Source: Promethearchaeota archaeon
GTDB lineage: Archaea > Asgardarchaeota > Lokiarchaeia > Sigyniarchaeales > SOKP01
Direction: 5' to 3'
NCBI GenBank assembly: GCA_019058445.1
Contig: JAHPZA010000005.1
Coordinates: 52,276 to 116,275 of the forward strand
Length of the DNA: 64,000 bases
Part shown: piece by piece, positions 4,742-11,500 of the stretch
Numbering within the stretch: position 1 is the first letter of the stretch
Layout: each line of letters starts with the position of its first letter
The notes under the pieces: model-generated
Databases searched by the model: none
Seen by the model: only the letters and a program-made list of their open reading frames with translations
Told to the model about the DNA's origin: nothing
Program-made: the position numbers and the translations under genes

Positions 4742-5911
4742 ATGAATAGAAGAGAACGGGTACAAAGAGCCTTCCATTTTAATCGCCCTGATAGAGTGCC
4801 TTTCCTTGGACTAACCGTACAATCTGATTTCTATCCTATAGAGCCAGTTTTGCCAATTGCATTTCAACCAGAAAAGTATCCTCCACATCCTAATGGCGGG
4901 GATACTACAATTAAGAATGCTGCATATCGAAGAGATGTTTATGATTGGAAACCAGAAATTAGAGAAAAATTAGGCTATTCTGAAAATTGGTGGGAAACTC
5001 CTCATGATAGTATTGATGAATTTGGTGTAATATGGCGGTCATCTGGAACTGAAAGTGGTGACAAAACAAAAGGGCATCCCTATAAAGGGCCCTTTCAAGA
5101 TGAGGGTACAGGTGAAGGATGGGATAATCTTGATAATTATGTATTTCCAGATGCAATGGATCCCAAACGTTATTCAAGGATACAGTCTGGAAGGTGGAAA
5201 GAAATCGCAGAAGATCGATACCTTTTAGGTGTTGTTAATATTAATGGAATGTTTAATAAGTGCAGTCAATTGCGAGGTTTTAGCGAACTTTTAATAGATT
5301 TGGTGCGAAATCGATATCCGAAAAGATTGGATTTTTTAATTAGTTCCGTTCTCTCATTTACTTTAACTACTATCGAGAAAATGAAAGAATCTTGTAAACC
5401 TTTAGATTCTATATTTATTGCAGATGATTTCGGAACTCAAAAATCAGCATTTGTAAGCCCAAGAATATTTAAAAAATTCTTTAAGGAACCATACAGAAAA
5501 ATAGTCAGTTTAACTCATGATTTGGGTATGGACTTTCTCCTTCATTCCTGCGGTGACGTTCTAGGCCTTATCCCAGAATTTATAGATATAGGTATTGATG
5601 CTTTACAATTTGACAGCCCTCACATGACTGGAGTTGAAAATTTTAAAAAATTTGCCCAAGAAAGAAAAATGGCATTTTGGCTGAGCTCAAACATACAAAG
5701 CACATTTATTAATGGAACGCCTCAGGATGTTGAAGAGGAAGTGAAATATTACATCAAGGATGTAGGGAATAATGAAGGAGGATTAGGAATCTGTGAATAC
5801 ACTGATTTTGAAGCAATAGAAGCCCCTAAAAAAAATGTCAGAGCCCAGAGAAAAGCCGTACAAAAATGGGGAAACTATAACGAAAATGGTATTATTGAGT
5901 GGTTAGTCTAA
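4742..5911 (+). CDS. Uroporphyrinogen decarboxylase/MtaA-family (corrinoid methyltransferase-like) protein
   Basis: MN.RERV..A......DRVP N-terminus, DEFGV.W, ADDFGTQ, SP..FKKFF, LHSCG. Confidence 0.85.
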   Translation: MNRRERVQRAFHFNRPDRVPFLGLTVQSDFYPIEPVLPIAFQPEKYPPHPNGGDTTIKNAAYRRDVYDWKPEIREKLGYSENWWETPHDSIDEFGVIWRSSGTESGDKTKGHPYKGPFQDEGTGEGWDNLDNYVFPDAMDPKRYSRIQSGRWKEIAEDRYLLGVVNINGMFNKCSQLRGFSELLIDLVRNRYPKRLDFLISSVLSFTLTTIEKMKESCKPLDSIFIADDFGTQKSAFVSPRIFKKFFKEPYRKIVSLTHDLGMDFLLHSCGDVLGLIPEFIDIGIDALQFDSPHMTGVENFKKFAQERKMAFWLSSNIQSTFINGTPQDVEEEVKYYIKDVGNNEGGLGICEYTDFEAIEAPKKNVRAQRKAVQKWGNYNENGIIEWLV

Positions 5912-6011
5912 CCTTATTTTAAAAATGGCTTAATTACAATATTTAAGATAGCATATAATTCATTGAAAATTATAAAATCAAAAAAAAGAAAAGTAAAAAA
6001 ATAGATAATGT

Positions 6012-6278
6012 TTAGGAGCTTACCAATCGAAATAATAAGGCGCCATGAGGAATGTAGAATTCGTCTTTTCTCTTTATCACGACGGTATGAAAATACTCCG
6101 CCAGTCCGAGAAACCCTCTTATCACACTCTCGTCTTCTTCAAATTTAAATGTTATATTTGATATTGCCGATCCTGTATTAAAGGCGACCTTCTCATAAAC
6201 ACGCTCATCGATTAAGGGAATTTTTAATTCATTGACGATTTCATAAACTCGCTTAATAAATAATTCTTTTTTAGCCAT
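6012..6278 (-). CDS. Small hypothetical protein (88 aa)
   Basis: Clean ATG ORF with GTGATG upstream in otherwise non-coding space; no recognisable motif. Confidence 0.7.
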   Translation of the reverse strand: MAKKELFIKRVYEIVNELKIPLIDERVYEKVAFNTGSAISNITFKFEEDESVIRGFLGLAEYFHTVVIKRKDEFYIPHGALLFRLVSS

Positions 6279-6553
6279 TCACATCACGATCATGTTGATT
6301 GATTTATTCAGAAATTAACAATATTTGGTTATTCTTATTTCAGAAAATTTTGTTAATTGTATTTTTTGAAAATATCAATTTCTGATATTGTTAATAATAG
6401 TATAATAAAATACTTATATTTATACTTTAATTATTCGAAGTCTTGACTTTCTGTTTAAATTTGGATAATAAAATCAAAAAAAAAATTTAAAAATAAAAAC
6501 TATTGAAGTAGAAAAAACCTTTAGGATTCTTCTTAAAATTAATATTTATAGGA

Positions 6554-7720
6554 TTAATTAATAGAAATGGGGTACTTTCCATGTTTTAAAATCACTTTAA
6601 AGATTGTTGGGATCGAAGCTAACATGTGCATAAAGGAGGGAAAACCTTCTGATATACCCATAAGAAAGTTATCTCCAGGAGCGGCATCCTTCAACATTTC
6701 CAATGTCTTTTTCTTTACTGCCTTTTGACCTTGAAGGCATACAGGTTCAGGGAAGTTAGCCCAAATTACTTTATCTTTCCATGACTCTTTAGCTTCATTA
6801 ATGGGAAGATTTCCTACAGGAGGTGCCGTGAAACTCTCAATGGCATCAATTCTTGTTTTCGCAATAAGCTCCTTTAAAGCTTTTAACTCGCCATCCATAT
6901 GTACAACATATAGTTTATCATGTTTATGGAAGATATCTGCTACTTCATTATAGAAAGGCAGACTATATTTCTCGAAAAATTTTGGACTAGTAACTAGAGA
7001 AGTAACGTTATCAGGACCCCAAATTACTTCACAAGGGGATTCTGCTGCAATTTTATAAACCTCCAGTTCTTTTTTATAAATAATTTTGTAAAGCTCATCA
7101 AATTCCTTTTGATGCATATAATAATCTAAAGCCAATCTTTTCGGTCCCATAAGCATAATTAATGATTGAAGAGGAGATTTTGGAACAAAGGAGGGGACAA
7201 TCCCAAAATCACCGATAAACATTTGAAATTCCTCAATTTCATCATAAAAAGGGCTATATTCAGTATCCTCTATAATATATTTTAATACTTCATAATCCTC
7301 AAGAGTTTTGAGGAAATATCCATCTTCTGGAAACCAAGGAAGGTTCGCAGAAAGGTCAAGACTTTCCATTTTTGCTTTTACTGAAAGTTTCCCTCTTGGA
7401 GTACTTAAACTTCCGGTTATATCGTGAGGGGTATTAAATGCTATCATAATATCTACCGGTGACCAAGAAGTTTTATTCCCATAATGATGGTTAATATCCA
7501 TCTTAGTATTTGGACAAGAAACTTTATGTGTCTGAACTGCCAAAGCAGCATGTAATCCAAGCCCTTTGTCTAATAGTTTTCTCCATGGTTGATAAAGAGC
7601 TAATCCAGCTAAATATTTTGTTTCCACATAGATAGTAAATGGTATCATATCGGGAGGTTCTCGTCGAAGAACTGCCATTATTCTTTCTTTTGCATTCAAC
7701 TTTTTACCCACCTCATACAA
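6554..7720 (-). CDS. URO-D/MtaA-family methyltransferase-like protein
   Basis: KERIMAVLRREPPD..P N-terminus, SPKFFEKY.LPFY, VHMDG, C-terminal TIM-barrel pattern; overlaps the corrinoid gene. Confidence 0.8.
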   Translation of the reverse strand: MYEVGKKLNAKERIMAVLRREPPDMIPFTIYVETKYLAGLALYQPWRKLLDKGLGLHAALAVQTHKVSCPNTKMDINHHYGNKTSWSPVDIMIAFNTPHDITGSLSTPRGKLSVKAKMESLDLSANLPWFPEDGYFLKTLEDYEVLKYIIEDTEYSPFYDEIEEFQMFIGDFGIVPSFVPKSPLQSLIMLMGPKRLALDYYMHQKEFDELYKIIYKKELEVYKIAAESPCEVIWGPDNVTSLVTSPKFFEKYSLPFYNEVADIFHKHDKLYVVHMDGELKALKELIAKTRIDAIESFTAPPVGNLPINEAKESWKDKVIWANFPEPVCLQGQKAVKKKTLEMLKDAAPGDNFLMGISEGFPSFMHMLASIPTIFKVILKHGKYPISIN

Positions 7721-8343
7721 ATATTAACACCATCCATCGCATTTTTCGCATAAGCATCTGCTCCGATATCCTTTATAAACTCTTCAGTGACAGGAGCGCC
7801 ACCAACAATAACTTTTACTTCTTTTCTTAGATTTGCCTCTACTAAAGCTTTCATTAAATTACCAACTTCAGGTAAAGTCATAGAGACTAAAGCGGATATG
7901 GCAACTATATCTGGATTTTCAGCGCGTATAGCTTCAATAAACCTTTCTGAAGACACATCAACACCTAAATCAATGACCTCAAAACCTTCTGCTTCTAAAA
8001 AAGTTATAACCACATTCTTTCCTATATCGTGTAGATCTCCTTTCCCTGTTCCGATTATAACTTTGGCAAGAGCATTTTTATCACCTTTTTCTTTAATTTG
8101 AGGTTCAAGTATTTTCATTGTCTCTTTTATAATTTCACCAGCCATGATAAGTTCAGGAATGAAGAATTCTTCAGCTTCAAATTTATCACTGATAATATTT
8201 GCTGCTTTTGCGATTCCTTCTTGAATTATCTTATATGGATGCATTCCTTTAGCAATCGCATCTTCACATACTTTCTTGGCCATTTCAATATCCATCTCGA
8301 TTACCGCTTTTATATACTGACTTATACTATTTTCTTCTGTCAT
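7696..8343 (-). CDS. Corrinoid (B12-binding) protein, MtaC/MtbC family
   Basis: EFFIPELIMAGE cap domain, GDLHDIGKN (DxHxxG), DLGVDV, GGAPV, ADAY..NA..G. Confidence 0.95.
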   Translation of the reverse strand: MTEENSISQYIKAVIEMDIEMAKKVCEDAIAKGMHPYKIIQEGIAKAANIISDKFEAEEFFIPELIMAGEIIKETMKILEPQIKEKGDKNALAKVIIGTGKGDLHDIGKNVVITFLEAEGFEVIDLGVDVSSERFIEAIRAENPDIVAISALVSMTLPEVGNLMKALVEANLRKEVKVIVGGAPVTEEFIKDIGADAYAKNAMDGVNICMRWVKS

Positions 8344-8574: not shown

Positions 8575-9348
8575 GTGGTTTCAAAGGAACAGAAGAAGTT
8601 AAATCGTGTGATGAATTTTCTAAAAAAAGGTTTATCCGGTTTAGCAGATGAGTTAGAAGGTACAATTAAAGGAATAAATGAATTCTTAGACTCCCTTCAA
8701 AAAGCTCAAAAAGATTTAAAGGGAGTCGAATCTGAAGAAGAAGTTGTTACTGTAAGCACTTCCTCTACGAAAATTGCTACTCCCAGTCCTGAGACTGCAA
8801 AAACTGCAGCTGCAAGTACGTTATTTAGTTTATTGAGCGGAACTGGAGGTGAAGCAGCTCCAGGCTCCGCACCAGTAGCAGCTGCTGCTTCAGGTGGACT
8901 TCCTAAAACGCCTTCAGGCGGTGGACCTCCTAAAGCACCTTCAGGCGGTGGGCCTCCAAAGGCACCTCCAGGCGGTGGGCCTCCAAAGGCACCTTCAGGC
9001 GGTGGGCCTCCAAAGGCACCATCAGGCGGTGGGCCTCCAAAGGCACCATCAGGCGGTGGACCTCCAAAGGCACCATCAGGCGGTGGGCCTCCAAAGGCAC
9101 CATCAAGTGGGTTACCTCCGGCTCCAAAACTTCCTCCTGCCCCTGGAACAGGCGCCCCTCCTACAGCACCAGGTGGCGTGAAACCGCCAGCTTTTGCAAA
9201 AAGAGCAGGACCTCCTGGAGCTCCAGGAGCACCCCCCGGTGGAGCAGCCCCAGCAGTAGCAGCTCAACCTGGCGGAGGTTTGAGTTCACTTAGAGATGAA
9301 ATGTTGGATGAATTAAATCGTCTAAAGAAAATTATGCGTGGAGAATAA
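8575..9348 (+). CDS. Proline-rich protein: N-terminal coiled coil, SGGGPPKAP repeats, C-terminal WH2/VASP-like helix (candidate actin regulator)
   Basis: GTG start after GAGGA; heptad-like N-terminus; Pro/Gly tract; C-terminus GGGLSSLRDEMLDELNRLKKIMRGE; immediately upstream of an actin-family gene. Confidence 0.8.
   Translation: MVSKEQKKLNRVMNFLKKGLSGLADELEGTIKGINEFLDSLQKAQKDLKGVESEEEVVTVSTSSTKIATPSPETAKTAAASTLFSLLSGTGGEAAPGSAPVAAAASGGLPKTPSGGGPPKAPSGGGPPKAPPGGGPPKAPSGGGPPKAPSGGGPPKAPSGGGPPKAPSGGGPPKAPSSGLPPAPKLPPAPGTGAPPTAPGGVKPPAFAKRAGPPGAPGAPPGGAAPAVAAQPGGGLSSLRDEMLDELNRLKKIMRGE
8914..9102 (+). repeat. Coding minisatellite, 7 x 27 bp, encoding (S/P)GGGPPKAP
   Basis: Units of the form TCAGGCGGTGG(A/G)CCTCC(T/A)AA(A/G)GCACC(T/A), directly abutting with no spacers. 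Confidence 0.95.
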
Positions 9349-9515
9349 GAGTTTTAACAAAACATTACTTTCTTTTCCTATATCTGTTCAATTTTATTGT
9401 TACAATATATAAAGTATTTTAAATTCAATTTCTTTGTATAAAATTAAATAGAAAAATATGAATTATATAATCAAAGTACATTTTTATTTTAAATAGATTT
9501 AAGTGATTAAATTTT

Positions 9516-10634
9516 ATGGGTAATCTTACTGTTGTTTTAGATATTGGTCAATTTTCGTCTAAAGCGGGTTTCGCAGGTGAAGATTTCCCATCTCAGGTAT
9601 TTTTTACCATTGTTGGTAAACCTAAATATCATAATCTTGATGCGCAATATGGTGGAGGAGCCGAACAGGAAGTTTATGTAGGAGAGGAGATTCAATCTCT
9701 TGGACTTTATAAAATTACCTCACCAATTAATAAAGGAAAAATAATTGATTGGAGTTATTTCGAAAAGATTTTGGACTATATTTTTTATAATTTAAGAGTT
9801 GATCATACTTTAGTAAACGTATTATTTGCTATTCATCCATTGTTTCCTAAAAAAGATCTCCAAAAAATATTCGAATTGTTTTTAGAGCATTATCAATGTA
9901 TGGGATTTTATCCTGTTTTAGACTCTTTATGTACTCTTTATTCTGGTGGATTTCAAACAGGATTAATTATAGAAATTGGAGATAGTAGTACAAGAATCGT
10001 ACCTATTTATAATGGATATAAAATAGATCATGCAATTAAAATTTTAGAAATTGGTGGAAGAGCTCTTACCCGGTATATGGAAACTCTTTTAGGATCCATA
10101 GGGTTTGCTTCTGATTCATCAATAAGGAGAGAATTAGTTCGAGTTTTAAAAGAAAAAGCATGTTTTGTTTCTTTGGATTATAAGGAAGATCTGAAAAGAA
10201 GTGAAGAATATACCAAACAATATTCATTACCCGATGGGGCGACTATTTCTTTATCCAAAGAAAGATTCATTCTTCCGGAAGCTCTATTCAATCCCTCCTT
10301 AATAAATTTAGAACATTATTCATTACCAGAAGCAATAATGGATGTAATTGAATTATGTGATGTTGATATTAGGGCTGAATTGTTAAATAATATCTTTTTG
10401 TCAGGAGGTTCTTCTATGTTTCCAAATCTTAAAAATAGAATATATCAGGAGCTTGAACTCTTGATGGCAAGAAAAAAAATAGACAATCAAGGTATAAAAA
10501 TTATTGCCCCAAGAGAGAGAACTTTTTCGGTGTGGGTTGGAGGATCCATTTTATCGATGATCCCGGAATTTTCTGACAATTGGATCACTCGGGCGAAATA
10601 TTATAAGGACGGCATTCCAGAAGACTTTATATGA
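9516..10634 (+). CDS. Actin-related protein (divergent Asgard-type actin homologue)
   Basis: VVLDIGQFSSKAGFAGED.P, IGDSSTRIVPIY.GY, KEK.CFVSLDY, YSLPDG, ERF..PEALFNPS, CDVDIR..L..NI.LSGGSSMFP, IIAP.ER.FSVWVGGSILS. Confidence 0.97.
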   Translation: MGNLTVVLDIGQFSSKAGFAGEDFPSQVFFTIVGKPKYHNLDAQYGGGAEQEVYVGEEIQSLGLYKITSPINKGKIIDWSYFEKILDYIFYNLRVDHTLVNVLFAIHPLFPKKDLQKIFELFLEHYQCMGFYPVLDSLCTLYSGGFQTGLIIEIGDSSTRIVPIYNGYKIDHAIKILEIGGRALTRYMETLLGSIGFASDSSIRRELVRVLKEKACFVSLDYKEDLKRSEEYTKQYSLPDGATISLSKERFILPEALFNPSLINLEHYSLPEAIMDVIELCDVDIRAELLNNIFLSGGSSMFPNLKNRIYQELELLMARKKIDNQGIKIIAPRERTFSVWVGGSILSMIPEFSDNWITRAKYYKDGIPEDFI

Positions 10635-10757: not shown

Positions 10758-11126
10758 TTGGTGTGTTATTTGGAAGAACTTCCTGAAAAAAGTTTCAATA
10801 AACAAAGTATGATGAGTAAATACGATTTATTTAACAAAATCAAGGGAATTAATACTCCTGTAAAAAGCGATATTTTGATTGCTCTCTTGGATGGAGAATA
10901 TCATTCTGAGACAGAATTAATCAGATTAGCAAAAAAAAGGGGTACAAATTATCTTGGAGCAGTAACTTTAGGAACCATGGTCAATTCATTGAATCATTTA
11001 TTAAAAAGTAATTATGTAGAGAAACAATTTGTAAATGGTGAAATGAATTATAAAATCTCCGATAATTATGTAGGCCTTACGCGAGCAGCATATAATAACT
11101 GGCAGCATAAAGCATTTAAATATTAA
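10758..11126 (+). CDS. Winged helix-turn-helix-like protein (paralogue 1)
   Basis: ILIALLDGEYHSETEL resembles BirA/ArsR-type HTH helices, followed by a helix and a beta-wing (VEKQFVNGEMNYKI); true start may be a later codon. Confidence 0.65.
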   Translation: MVCYLEELPEKSFNKQSMMSKYDLFNKIKGINTPVKSDILIALLDGEYHSETELIRLAKKRGTNYLGAVTLGTMVNSLNHLLKSNYVEKQFVNGEMNYKISDNYVGLTRAAYNNWQHKAFKY

Positions 11127-11131
11127 GGGGA

Positions 11132-11500
11132 ATGATTTTGGATAAATTAGGAAAAGAATTTAATATTTCTACACTTATGAAAATCGTCTTTAAACCAGAA
11201 TATTCCAATATGTTCAATAAGATCACTAATATAAATGCTCCTGTAAAAAATGACATCCTAATAACTCTTTTAGATGGGAAATACCATTCTCAAACCGAAA
11301 TTATAAGACTCATTAAAAAAAAACATCAATATCTCGGTCCAATAACTCTTACGACCATGATAGAATCTTTGAATAGTCGCACAAAAAATAATTACTTAGT
11401 AAAAAAGATTGTAAATGGAAGAATTTACTATAAAATCTCTGATAATTATGTTGGCCTCACAAAGGCTGCTTTTACAAAATTCAGGTTTGCAAATATTTGA
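11132..11500 (+). CDS. Winged helix-turn-helix-like protein (paralogue 2)
   Basis: Clear paralogue of the upstream ORF (PVK.DILI.LLDG.YHS.TE, YLG..TL.TM, YKISDNYVGLT.AA); GGGG just upstream of the ATG. Confidence 0.65.
   Translation: MILDKLGKEFNISTLMKIVFKPEYSNMFNKITNINAPVKNDILITLLDGKYHSQTEIIRLIKKKHQYLGPITLTTMIESLNSRTKNNYLVKKIVNGRIYYKISDNYVGLTKAAFTKFRFANI

Follow-up and report, generated by a model that had tools for sequence, protein, structure and literature searches.

An actin-related protein with a substituted ATP site in one order of Lokiarchaeia

Among prokaryotes, a regulated, eukaryote-like actin cytoskeleton is, to our knowledge, confined to Asgard archaea. The known Asgard actin regulators are profilins and gelsolins, and we know of no Asgard nucleator or end-capping actin-related protein that has been demonstrated. 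Asgard actin-related proteins as such are a known category. One of them is UYP44126.1 of the cultured Candidatus Lokiarchaeum ossiferum, which Rodrigues-Oliveira et al. placed among three 'ARPs', reporting its position in a tree and a transcript level several-fold below that of Lokiactin, and no function (PMC9834061). Among the papers searched, we found no other mention of UYP44126.1. In actin, the attacking water is positioned by Q137 and activated by H161, two residues that Arp2 and Arp3 retain and require (PMC3587832); A108 governs the flipping of His161 in actin (PMC10062479). Here we describe an actin-related protein (ARP) encoded in a 64,000-nucleotide stretch of DNA, referred to as the window, from a Promethearchaeota archaeon of the Sigyniarchaeales (assembly GCA_019058445.1, contig JAHPZA010000005.1, positions 52,276 to 116,275). 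Its conservation pattern predicts a protein that has nucleotide bound, forms no F-actin-type polymer, and acts via its barbed-end face. The L. ossiferum member of its clade stands in the published tree already; new are the signature of the ARP family, its confinement to part of a single order, a zinc-ribbon paralogue as its sister group, its ca. 8-fold relaxed constraint, and the conservation pattern of its barbed end.

ATP site and surface of the ARP

The ARP gene starts with ATG and encodes 372 residues uninterrupted by stops, so the reading frame is intact (Table 1). The product matches the Pfam family Actin (PF00022) over residues 5-366 with 286.2 bits at a cut-off of 27 (E=4.3e-85). Its phmmer matches in the Protein Data Bank (PDB) are actins with E values of ~1e-82 to 1e-85, the best being 'HC1 actin', followed by yeast actin. 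The AlphaFold2 (AF2) model, calculated from a diverse 75-row alignment, has a pLDDT of 92.8 and a pTM of 0.90, and the D-loop residues 44-48 alone fall below a pLDDT of 50. This model replaced that of an earlier run on a shallow alignment, all rows of which were >=71% identical, where the pLDDT was 68 and the pocket was disordered. The top 50 Foldseek matches of the model in the PDB are all canonical G-/F-actin chains (TM 0.88-0.93), aligned without insertions over ~367-371 columns with a root mean square deviation of 1.5-2.9 Å. Hence, the ARP is a compact actin without Arp-type insertions, and its model has the four-subdomain actin fold (TM 0.90-0.93 to actin chains).

Residue numbers were fixed on yeast actin by the phmmer alignment, and the ARP was also aligned to the Lokiactins of its own genome; substitutions are given below in actin numbering. 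The P1 phosphate loop DNGSG is changed to DIGQF (N12I, S14Q, and G15F at ARP residues 10, 12, and 13), IEHG to INKG (E72N and H73K at ARP residues 72 and 73), and DSGDGVTH of the P2 loop to EIGDSSTR (D154E, G158S, and H161R at ARP residues 153, 157, and 160). Q137 is replaced by the aspartate at ARP residue 136, and the C-terminus reads GIPEDFI. Thus, in place of the catalytic set of conventional actins and Lokiactins (Q137, H161, a DNG[ST]G P1 loop, and G158) the ARP has D136, R160, DIGQF, and S157, and in place of the phosphate-release set H73, N111, and R177 and the HR(K)CF end it has K73, F110, I176, and a tail lacking that motif. The two Lokiactins of the same genome retain DNGTG, EHG, Q137, DIGDGVSH, and HRCF. 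The original prediction, made by eye from the DNA alone, had listed N12I, S14Q, G15F, H73K, Q137D, D154E, G158S, H161R, and the missing HRKCF tail; all are borne out by the alignment to yeast actin and Lokiactins, in which the catalytic residues Q137 and H161 are indeed substituted and not retained. The Gly-rich D-loop that it also noted is present in this sequence (YGGGAEQ) but is not shared by the family, whose members differ more in this loop than anywhere else in the protein; glycine stands at positions 46, 47, and 48 in 70, 48, and 17 of 120 orthologues, respectively. Further changes were missing from its list, namely A108H, N111F, a hydrophobic residue for R177, V/I/T for E107, and replacement of D184.

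Conservation of these changes was inspected in the window's own GTDB family (f1) and its sister family (f2), which together with f28 and f29 are the four families of one order. Among the 120 orthologues, Q12 is found in 116, F13 and E153 each in 118, D136 in 119, and S157 and R160 in all; position 73 is Lys in 91 and Asn in 22. The pocket substitutions are therefore near-fixed and reflect neither chance nor decay. A108 is His in 120 of 121 f1 sequences. In a set of 22 genomes from f1 and f2, H161R occurs in all 22 ARPs, E107 is replaced by Val, Ile, or Thr in all 22, N111 by Phe in 17, and R177 by a hydrophobic residue (Ile in 16, Phe in three, and Met and Tyr in one each); R116 and D184 are replaced as well. 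H73, E107, A108, N111, R116, Q137, H161, R177, and D184 do not vary in the 22 Lokiactins of these genomes. Invariant across the ARP clade are D11, G13, K18, G156, G182, R210, K213, E214, G301, G302, and F306, which we take to be actin's phosphate-, ribose-, and adenine-anchoring residues. Three of four f2 ARPs have Gly at 137 and Ala or Ser at 157. As position 137 is Asp in f1 and mostly Gly in f2, and D157 is changed to Ala or Ser in f2, the clade as a whole has no common catalytic arrangement. Slow hydrolysis of ATP by the ARP, as the original prediction proposed, would be plausible.

The ARP and Lokiactin were compared in the 22 matched genomes in actin numbering, with significance taken from random position sets. 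Within f1, the mean identity is 96.6% for Lokiactin and 73.0% for the ARP, which thus diverges 8.0-fold more; for f1 against f2, the values are 91.8% and 49.3%, respectively. The nucleotide contacts of the ARP have a conservation of 0.99, exceeding every random position set. The barbed-end groove is also highly conserved (0.89, P = 0.014), and S145G, R147F, S350P, and T351E are invariant, clade-specific residues in it. The D-loop (0.45), the hydrophobic plug (H-plug, 0.67), and the lateral contacts (0.66) score low, with fractions of 0.000, 0.042, and 0.016 of random sets being as low or lower, whereas the same elements reach 0.96-0.98 in Lokiactin. The extreme conservation of a conventional actin is thus not found, neither in sequence identity within f1 (73% vs 96.6%) nor in the D-loop (0.45 vs 0.96).

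We hold it somewhat more probable than even that the ARP is a lineage-specific, nucleotide-binding accessory protein that lacks actin's polymerization-coupled ATPase cycle, is not an interior subunit of F-actin, and acts via its barbed-end face. Folding as a compact, insertion-free actin, it would most likely still bind an adenine nucleotide, and it would have neither the polymerization-triggered hydrolysis nor the gated phosphate release of actin and stay outside an F-actin-type lattice. It would work as a low-abundance accessory factor through the conserved barbed-end face, i.e. the groove between subdomains 1 and 3. Because this groove is conserved while the D-loop evolves freely, the barbed face would be engaged and the pointed face free. 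The groove could accommodate the amphipathic helix of a regulator, so that the ARP is held as a monomer by its partner, or it could take up the D-loop of the last Lokiactin subunit of a filament, and the ARP would then be a pointed-end cap or seed. The role as template, seed, or cap suggested by the original prediction would fit the conserved groove and the free D-loop; the observations of that prediction are confirmed, and its interpretation is partly supported.

Several points weigh against this reading. The f1 pocket residues Q12, F13, H107, D136, E153, S157, and R160 are almost invariant, which argues for a specific, possibly catalytic role of the pocket rather than a dead site. In ParM, MreB, and Hsp70, the catalytic base is usually an acidic residue at this place (137); by analogy, the one in the ARP could act as base and give a working, different ATPase. 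The longitudinal contacts between subdomains 4 and 3 (SD4-SD3) have average conservation (0.78) and are not relaxed. The filament-contact residues used for the surface mapping are presumably those of F-actin structures, as we assumed them in drawing up the lists. The text of a report on Lokiactin co-immunoprecipitation in L. ossiferum names no actin paralogue among the enriched proteins (PMC13716822); this disfavors stable binding of the ARP to Lokiactin, though low abundance of the ARP could explain it.

The near-invariant pocket would also suit an ARP that forms a second filament system of its own, being an active, polymerizing ATPase with Asp137 as base and Arg161 contacting the γ-phosphate. 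D11, K18, G156, and D157 are retained in f1, no blocking insertions interrupt the compact, actin-like fold, and the SD4-SD3 patch, besides its average conservation, contains the invariant residues P243, D244, D286, D288, and R290. If the D137/R161 pocket is catalytic, it would represent a naturally evolved alternative to the ATPase of actin. We nevertheless consider an own filament unlikely. Three of the four f2 sequences have the Gly at 137 and Ala or Ser at 157. Conservation in the ARP is lowest in the D-loop, H-plug, and lateral contacts, elements that are conserved to 96-98% in the Lokiactins of these genomes. Divergence is 8-fold faster than that of Lokiactin, and in L. ossiferum the transcripts are at a low level (PMC9834061).

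Table 1. Features of the ARP gene and its upstream region (window positions)
Feature	Position	Strand	Remark
CDS of the ARP	9516..10634	+	372 aa, stop included
P1 phosphate loop DIGQFSSK (residues 9-16; actin D11-K18)	9540..9563	+	D11, G13, K18 kept; N12I, S14Q, G15F
D-loop equivalent (residues 38-53)	9627..9674	+	exceeds actin's by 3 residues; the family's least conserved segment
K73 replacing actin H73	9732..9734	+	alignment to actins
Pro-rich-loop equivalent IHPLFP (actin E107-P112)	9831..9848	+	E107I, A108H, N111F
D136 replacing catalytic Q137	9921..9923	+	alignment to actins
P2 phosphate loop EIGDSSTR (residues 153-160; actin D154-H161)	9972..9995	+	G156, D157 kept; D154E, G158S, H161R
I176 replacing actin R177 (phosphate 'back door' residue)	10041..10043	+	alignment of the 22-genome set
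257-aa Pro-rich protein, upstream of the ARP	8575..9348	+	context only
167-bp AT-rich spacer	9349..9515	.	T-tracts after the upstream stop; TATA-like boxes ~20-35 nt before ATG; read by eye

Relatives and distribution

The genome containing the window (4.6 Mb in 10 contigs, ~31% GC, 92.6% complete) has six actin-family loci, which are two Lokiactins, 83% identical to each other, and four diverged paralogues including the ARP. The ARP is 41% identical to the two Lokiactins. A FastTree phylogeny (LG+gamma) was built from 166 sequences, comprising family members, f2 homologues, the paralogues of this genome and of L. ossiferum, and domain-trimmed representatives; its root, the most divergent paralogue of the genome, is arbitrary, and of the eukaryotic Arps one vertebrate Arp2 (P0193), so named by its source, is identifiable in it. 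The f1 and f2 ARPs are monophyletic with a support of 1.0. Their sister (0.84) is a zinc-ribbon paralogue type found in the window's genome (L005) and in L. ossiferum (L023). The ARPs and their sister together fall outside a clade (0.90, 0.999) that unites the Lokiactins, a further paralogue type (L003), and eukaryote-type actins including the Arp2. IQ-TREE -fast with SH-aLRT on 70 sequences recovered the same groupings. The phylogeny for which the original prediction had called thus groups the ARP neither with Lokiactins nor with P0193, which falls in the eukaryote-type clade. It is safe to state, on sequence grounds, that the ARP represents an Asgard-internal lineage of actin-related proteins and is an orthologue of neither Lokiactin nor Arp2. 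Four results back its description as Arp-like rather than as a filament actin: this placement, the ~8-fold rate, the wholly replaced catalytic and phosphate-release set, and the relaxed D-loop, H-plug, and lateral contacts.

The other actin loci of the genome have features of their own. The zinc-ribbon paralogue (512 aa; G000:C10:46366-47307, L005:937-2472:-, and in L. ossiferum L023:961-2457:-) carries an insert of ~140 aa in subdomain 4/3, a double zinc ribbon according to Pfam (DZR, Zn_ribbon_3); it keeps Q137, has D154E and H161W, and also occurs in f29. The L003 paralogue (G000:C10:653495-654577), which groups with the Lokiactins, keeps Q137 and has G15L, H73R, D154N, D157E, and H161N. 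Judged by these residues, the ATP site has been rewired a second time in this genome, independently of the ARP. As to the Lokiactins (L001, G000:C2:106654-107766; L002, C6:647119-648228), one is 99-100% identical to those of other f1 genera, and the copy from genome G135 is only 81% identical; a second Lokiactin subtype seems to circulate in f1.

Distribution was sampled by GTDB kinship in 201 genomes of the phylum. f1 alone has orthologues at 62-77% identity (36 of 40 genomes). Homologues at 47-55% identity were found in eight of nine f2 genomes, and f28 gave one partial match at 50%. The ARP was not found in the four f29 genomes (63-88% complete), where the paralogue type of ~500 aa is found; outside the order, the 201 genomes gave matches only at the Lokiactin level of 41-46% identity. 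Two f1 genomes lacking the ARP (G057 and G077) are 91-92% complete, and since the otherwise ubiquitous adjacent gene for a Pro-rich protein is missing there too, an assembly gap is likelier than loss. An exhaustive search of 1.84 billion cluster representatives returned a single 50%-identity cluster of the family (619 bits), the next match scoring 335 bits, and the combined ARP signature is absent from all 145 next-best representatives. Metagenome-assembled genomes named Thor-, Hod-, Heimdall-, and Odinarchaeota at NCBI contain orthologues of 73-77% identity in the f1-type gene order (P0031, P0038, P0077, P0096, and P0102; L007, L009, and L010), and these source names look unreliable. An Asgard-wide family, as such names would imply, was rejected, because the search by GTDB kinship gave one order and the gene order in those contigs is identical.

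The ARP family was linked to UYP44126.1 through an exact primer match. The published RT-qPCR primers for the actin homologues of L. ossiferum (PMC9834061) match exactly one genome of the order, G206 (f2; 6.0 Mb, single contig). G206 has four actin homologues, in agreement with the count in that paper, and the homologue 50% identical to the ARP contains the exact primer site of GenBank UYP44126.1. The ARP shares a clade with this protein (monophyly support 1.0) as well as H161R, S14Q, and G15F. Having a homologue in a cultured organism, the family is open to bench study.

Neighbouring genes

The upstream Pro-rich protein consists of N-terminal helices, an AASTLFSLLS motif, eight GGGPPKAPS-type repeats, LPPAPKLPP, and a C-terminal helix ending in RLKKIMRGE. 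The layout of its family is the same, with AASxLFxxLS, a variable GPPK/S array, LPPxPK[LM]PP, and an invariant helix ending in RLKKIMRG. Members (L016-L018, L025-L028, and L065-L068) span several Asgard families and vary widely in repeat count; the sole strictly conserved part is the C-terminal helix L[RK]xEM[LM]xE[LI]xR[LI]K[KE][IL], in which 17 of the last 22 positions are invariant.

The original prediction had paired the ARP with this nucleation-factor-like neighbour. This pairing is weakened. In f1, the two genes are adjacent on the same strand in every locus examined (the window, L007-L010, L014, and L015), sometimes with a PIG-L gene between them. The adjacency is confined to f1: in f2, the two genes are separated by 43-272 kb or are on different contigs, and full-length homologues occur in f12 (7/7), f19 (3/6), and f3 (4/4), families without the ARP, with no actin gene near them. 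A nucleator partner would be expected to be co-distributed and linked across lineages. As the Pro-rich family is older, more widespread, and full-length in families lacking the ARP, its ancestral partner was not the ARP, and Lokiactin is the obvious candidate. The adjacency in f1 may reflect a secondary functional coupling of the two proteins, though it does not speak strongly for one.

In a stronger form of the pairing, the two genes would constitute a nucleation module analogous to Arp2/3 with WASP or to WH2 nucleators, the C-terminal helix (...LRDEMLDELNRLKKIMRGE) binding the ARP groove in the manner of WH2. Same-strand adjacency in f1, the presence of both genes in all f2 genomes tested for both, the invariance of the helix, and the fact that the groove is the most conserved surface of the ARP speak for such a module. 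Its genes are far apart in f2, however, the Pro-rich protein persists without the ARP and without a nearby actin gene in f12, f19, and f3, and the spacing from helix to LKK is shorter than in a canonical WH2, as judged from sequence. The spacer between the genes has terminator-like T-tracts and TATA-like boxes, and the ARP gene plausibly has its own promoter. No protein fusing the ARP to a partner was found, the search for longer forms giving only a tandem actin of Symbiodinium. A complex prediction of the ARP with the last 48 residues of the neighbour, run without controls, gave an ipSAE of 0.00 in both runs and carries no weight on either side. We regard the two-gene module as quite unlikely. 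A related proposal sees in the ARP a subunit that serves as template or caps the pointed end in an actin nucleator specific to Asgard archaea, genetically coupled in f1 to the older Pro-rich protein with its LKKI helix. Archaea would then have independently invented a nucleation machine made of an ARP and a proline-rich activator, analogous to Arp2/3 with WASP; we would give this proposal a low probability.

Downstream, the gene order of f1 is conserved, with the ARP followed by a protein of 112-122 aa containing YKISDNYVGLTRAAY and then topoisomerase IA (TopoIA). This order would accommodate a DNA- or chromatin-linked ARP of nuclear-Arp type, with the winged-helix-like proteins downstream and the adjacent TopoIA as its partners, and some divergent actin-like proteins of eukaryotes also have an aromatic residue at position 15 (8 of 145 representatives). 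A chromatin role is highly improbable, however: the order was not seen in f2, the small downstream proteins have no Pfam match, the ARP has no insertions of nuclear-Arp type, and nothing ties it to DNA.

Other genes around the locus were noted. In the window, the motif YKISDNYVGLTRAAY is found in two tandem paralogues of 122 aa (10758-11126 and 11132-11500, both +), which are a recent local duplication, since related f1 genomes have a single copy there. A strongly conserved gene for an 88-aa protein (6012-6278, -) lies divergently beside the Pro-rich gene in f1 loci, and a 107-aa homologue lies 1.7 kb from a Pro-rich homologue in the distant small-genome family f3 (L067:891-1214); the two genes look like an older conserved pair. 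Between them, the window has two genes for URO-D-like methyltransferases and one for a B12-binding corrinoid protein (4742-8343), an insertion not present in relatives, where the two genes directly adjoin. Neither the 88-aa nor the 122-aa neighbours matched anything in Pfam (E up to 1) or ESM-Atlas. In the f2 genome G089, a small Ras/Rab-like GTPase of 197 aa (P-loop GDPAIGKTS; L012:4276-4869, -) is encoded directly upstream of the ARP homologue.

Comparison with known systems

The ARP is relevant to the nucleation or capping of Asgard actin. If the favored reading is true, actin would have specialized into ARPs repeatedly within Asgard lineages, besides doing so on the eukaryotic stem. The distribution of the ARP is too narrow for an ancestor of the eukaryotic Arps, and its weight for eukaryogenesis is limited by this.

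Among Asgard proteins, Lokiactin shares with the ARP the fold, the length class, the nucleotide-anchoring residues, and 89 common invariant positions at 41% identity; the ARP differs from it in evolving 8-fold faster and in being confined to one order. UYP44126.1 resembles the ARP most closely in belonging to the same clade at 50% identity, in having the same length and H161R, S14Q, and G15F, and in lacking the HRCF tail, but it has Gly at 137 and Ser at 157, and the Pro-rich gene of its genome, at G206:C1:729373-730167, is 272 kb away. The zinc-ribbon paralogue (the L. ossiferum copy is probably UYP44711.1) has in common with the ARP its place in the sister clade, a DIG P1 loop, and D154E. 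It is distinguished by Q137, Trp at 161, the double zinc ribbon insert, and its occurrence in f29.

Among eukaryotic proteins, BAF53 has a P1 loop of the DIGSY type. Nuclear Arps are held by the helix of an HSA domain on their barbed-end side (PMC6167448), and monomers of the Arp4/BAF53 type held in this way are like the mode proposed for the ARP; unlike them, the ARP has no Arp4-type insertions and comes from archaea, which are not known to have HSA-domain remodelers. Arp2 and Arp3 have the actin fold as well and template the pointed end of a filament via their barbed-end faces, from which we infer no more than a functional analogy. They differ from the ARP in that they keep Q137 and H161 and hydrolyze ATP (PMC3587832), carry characteristic insertions, and belong to a seven-subunit complex, whereas the ARP has Q137D and H161R and is free of insertions.

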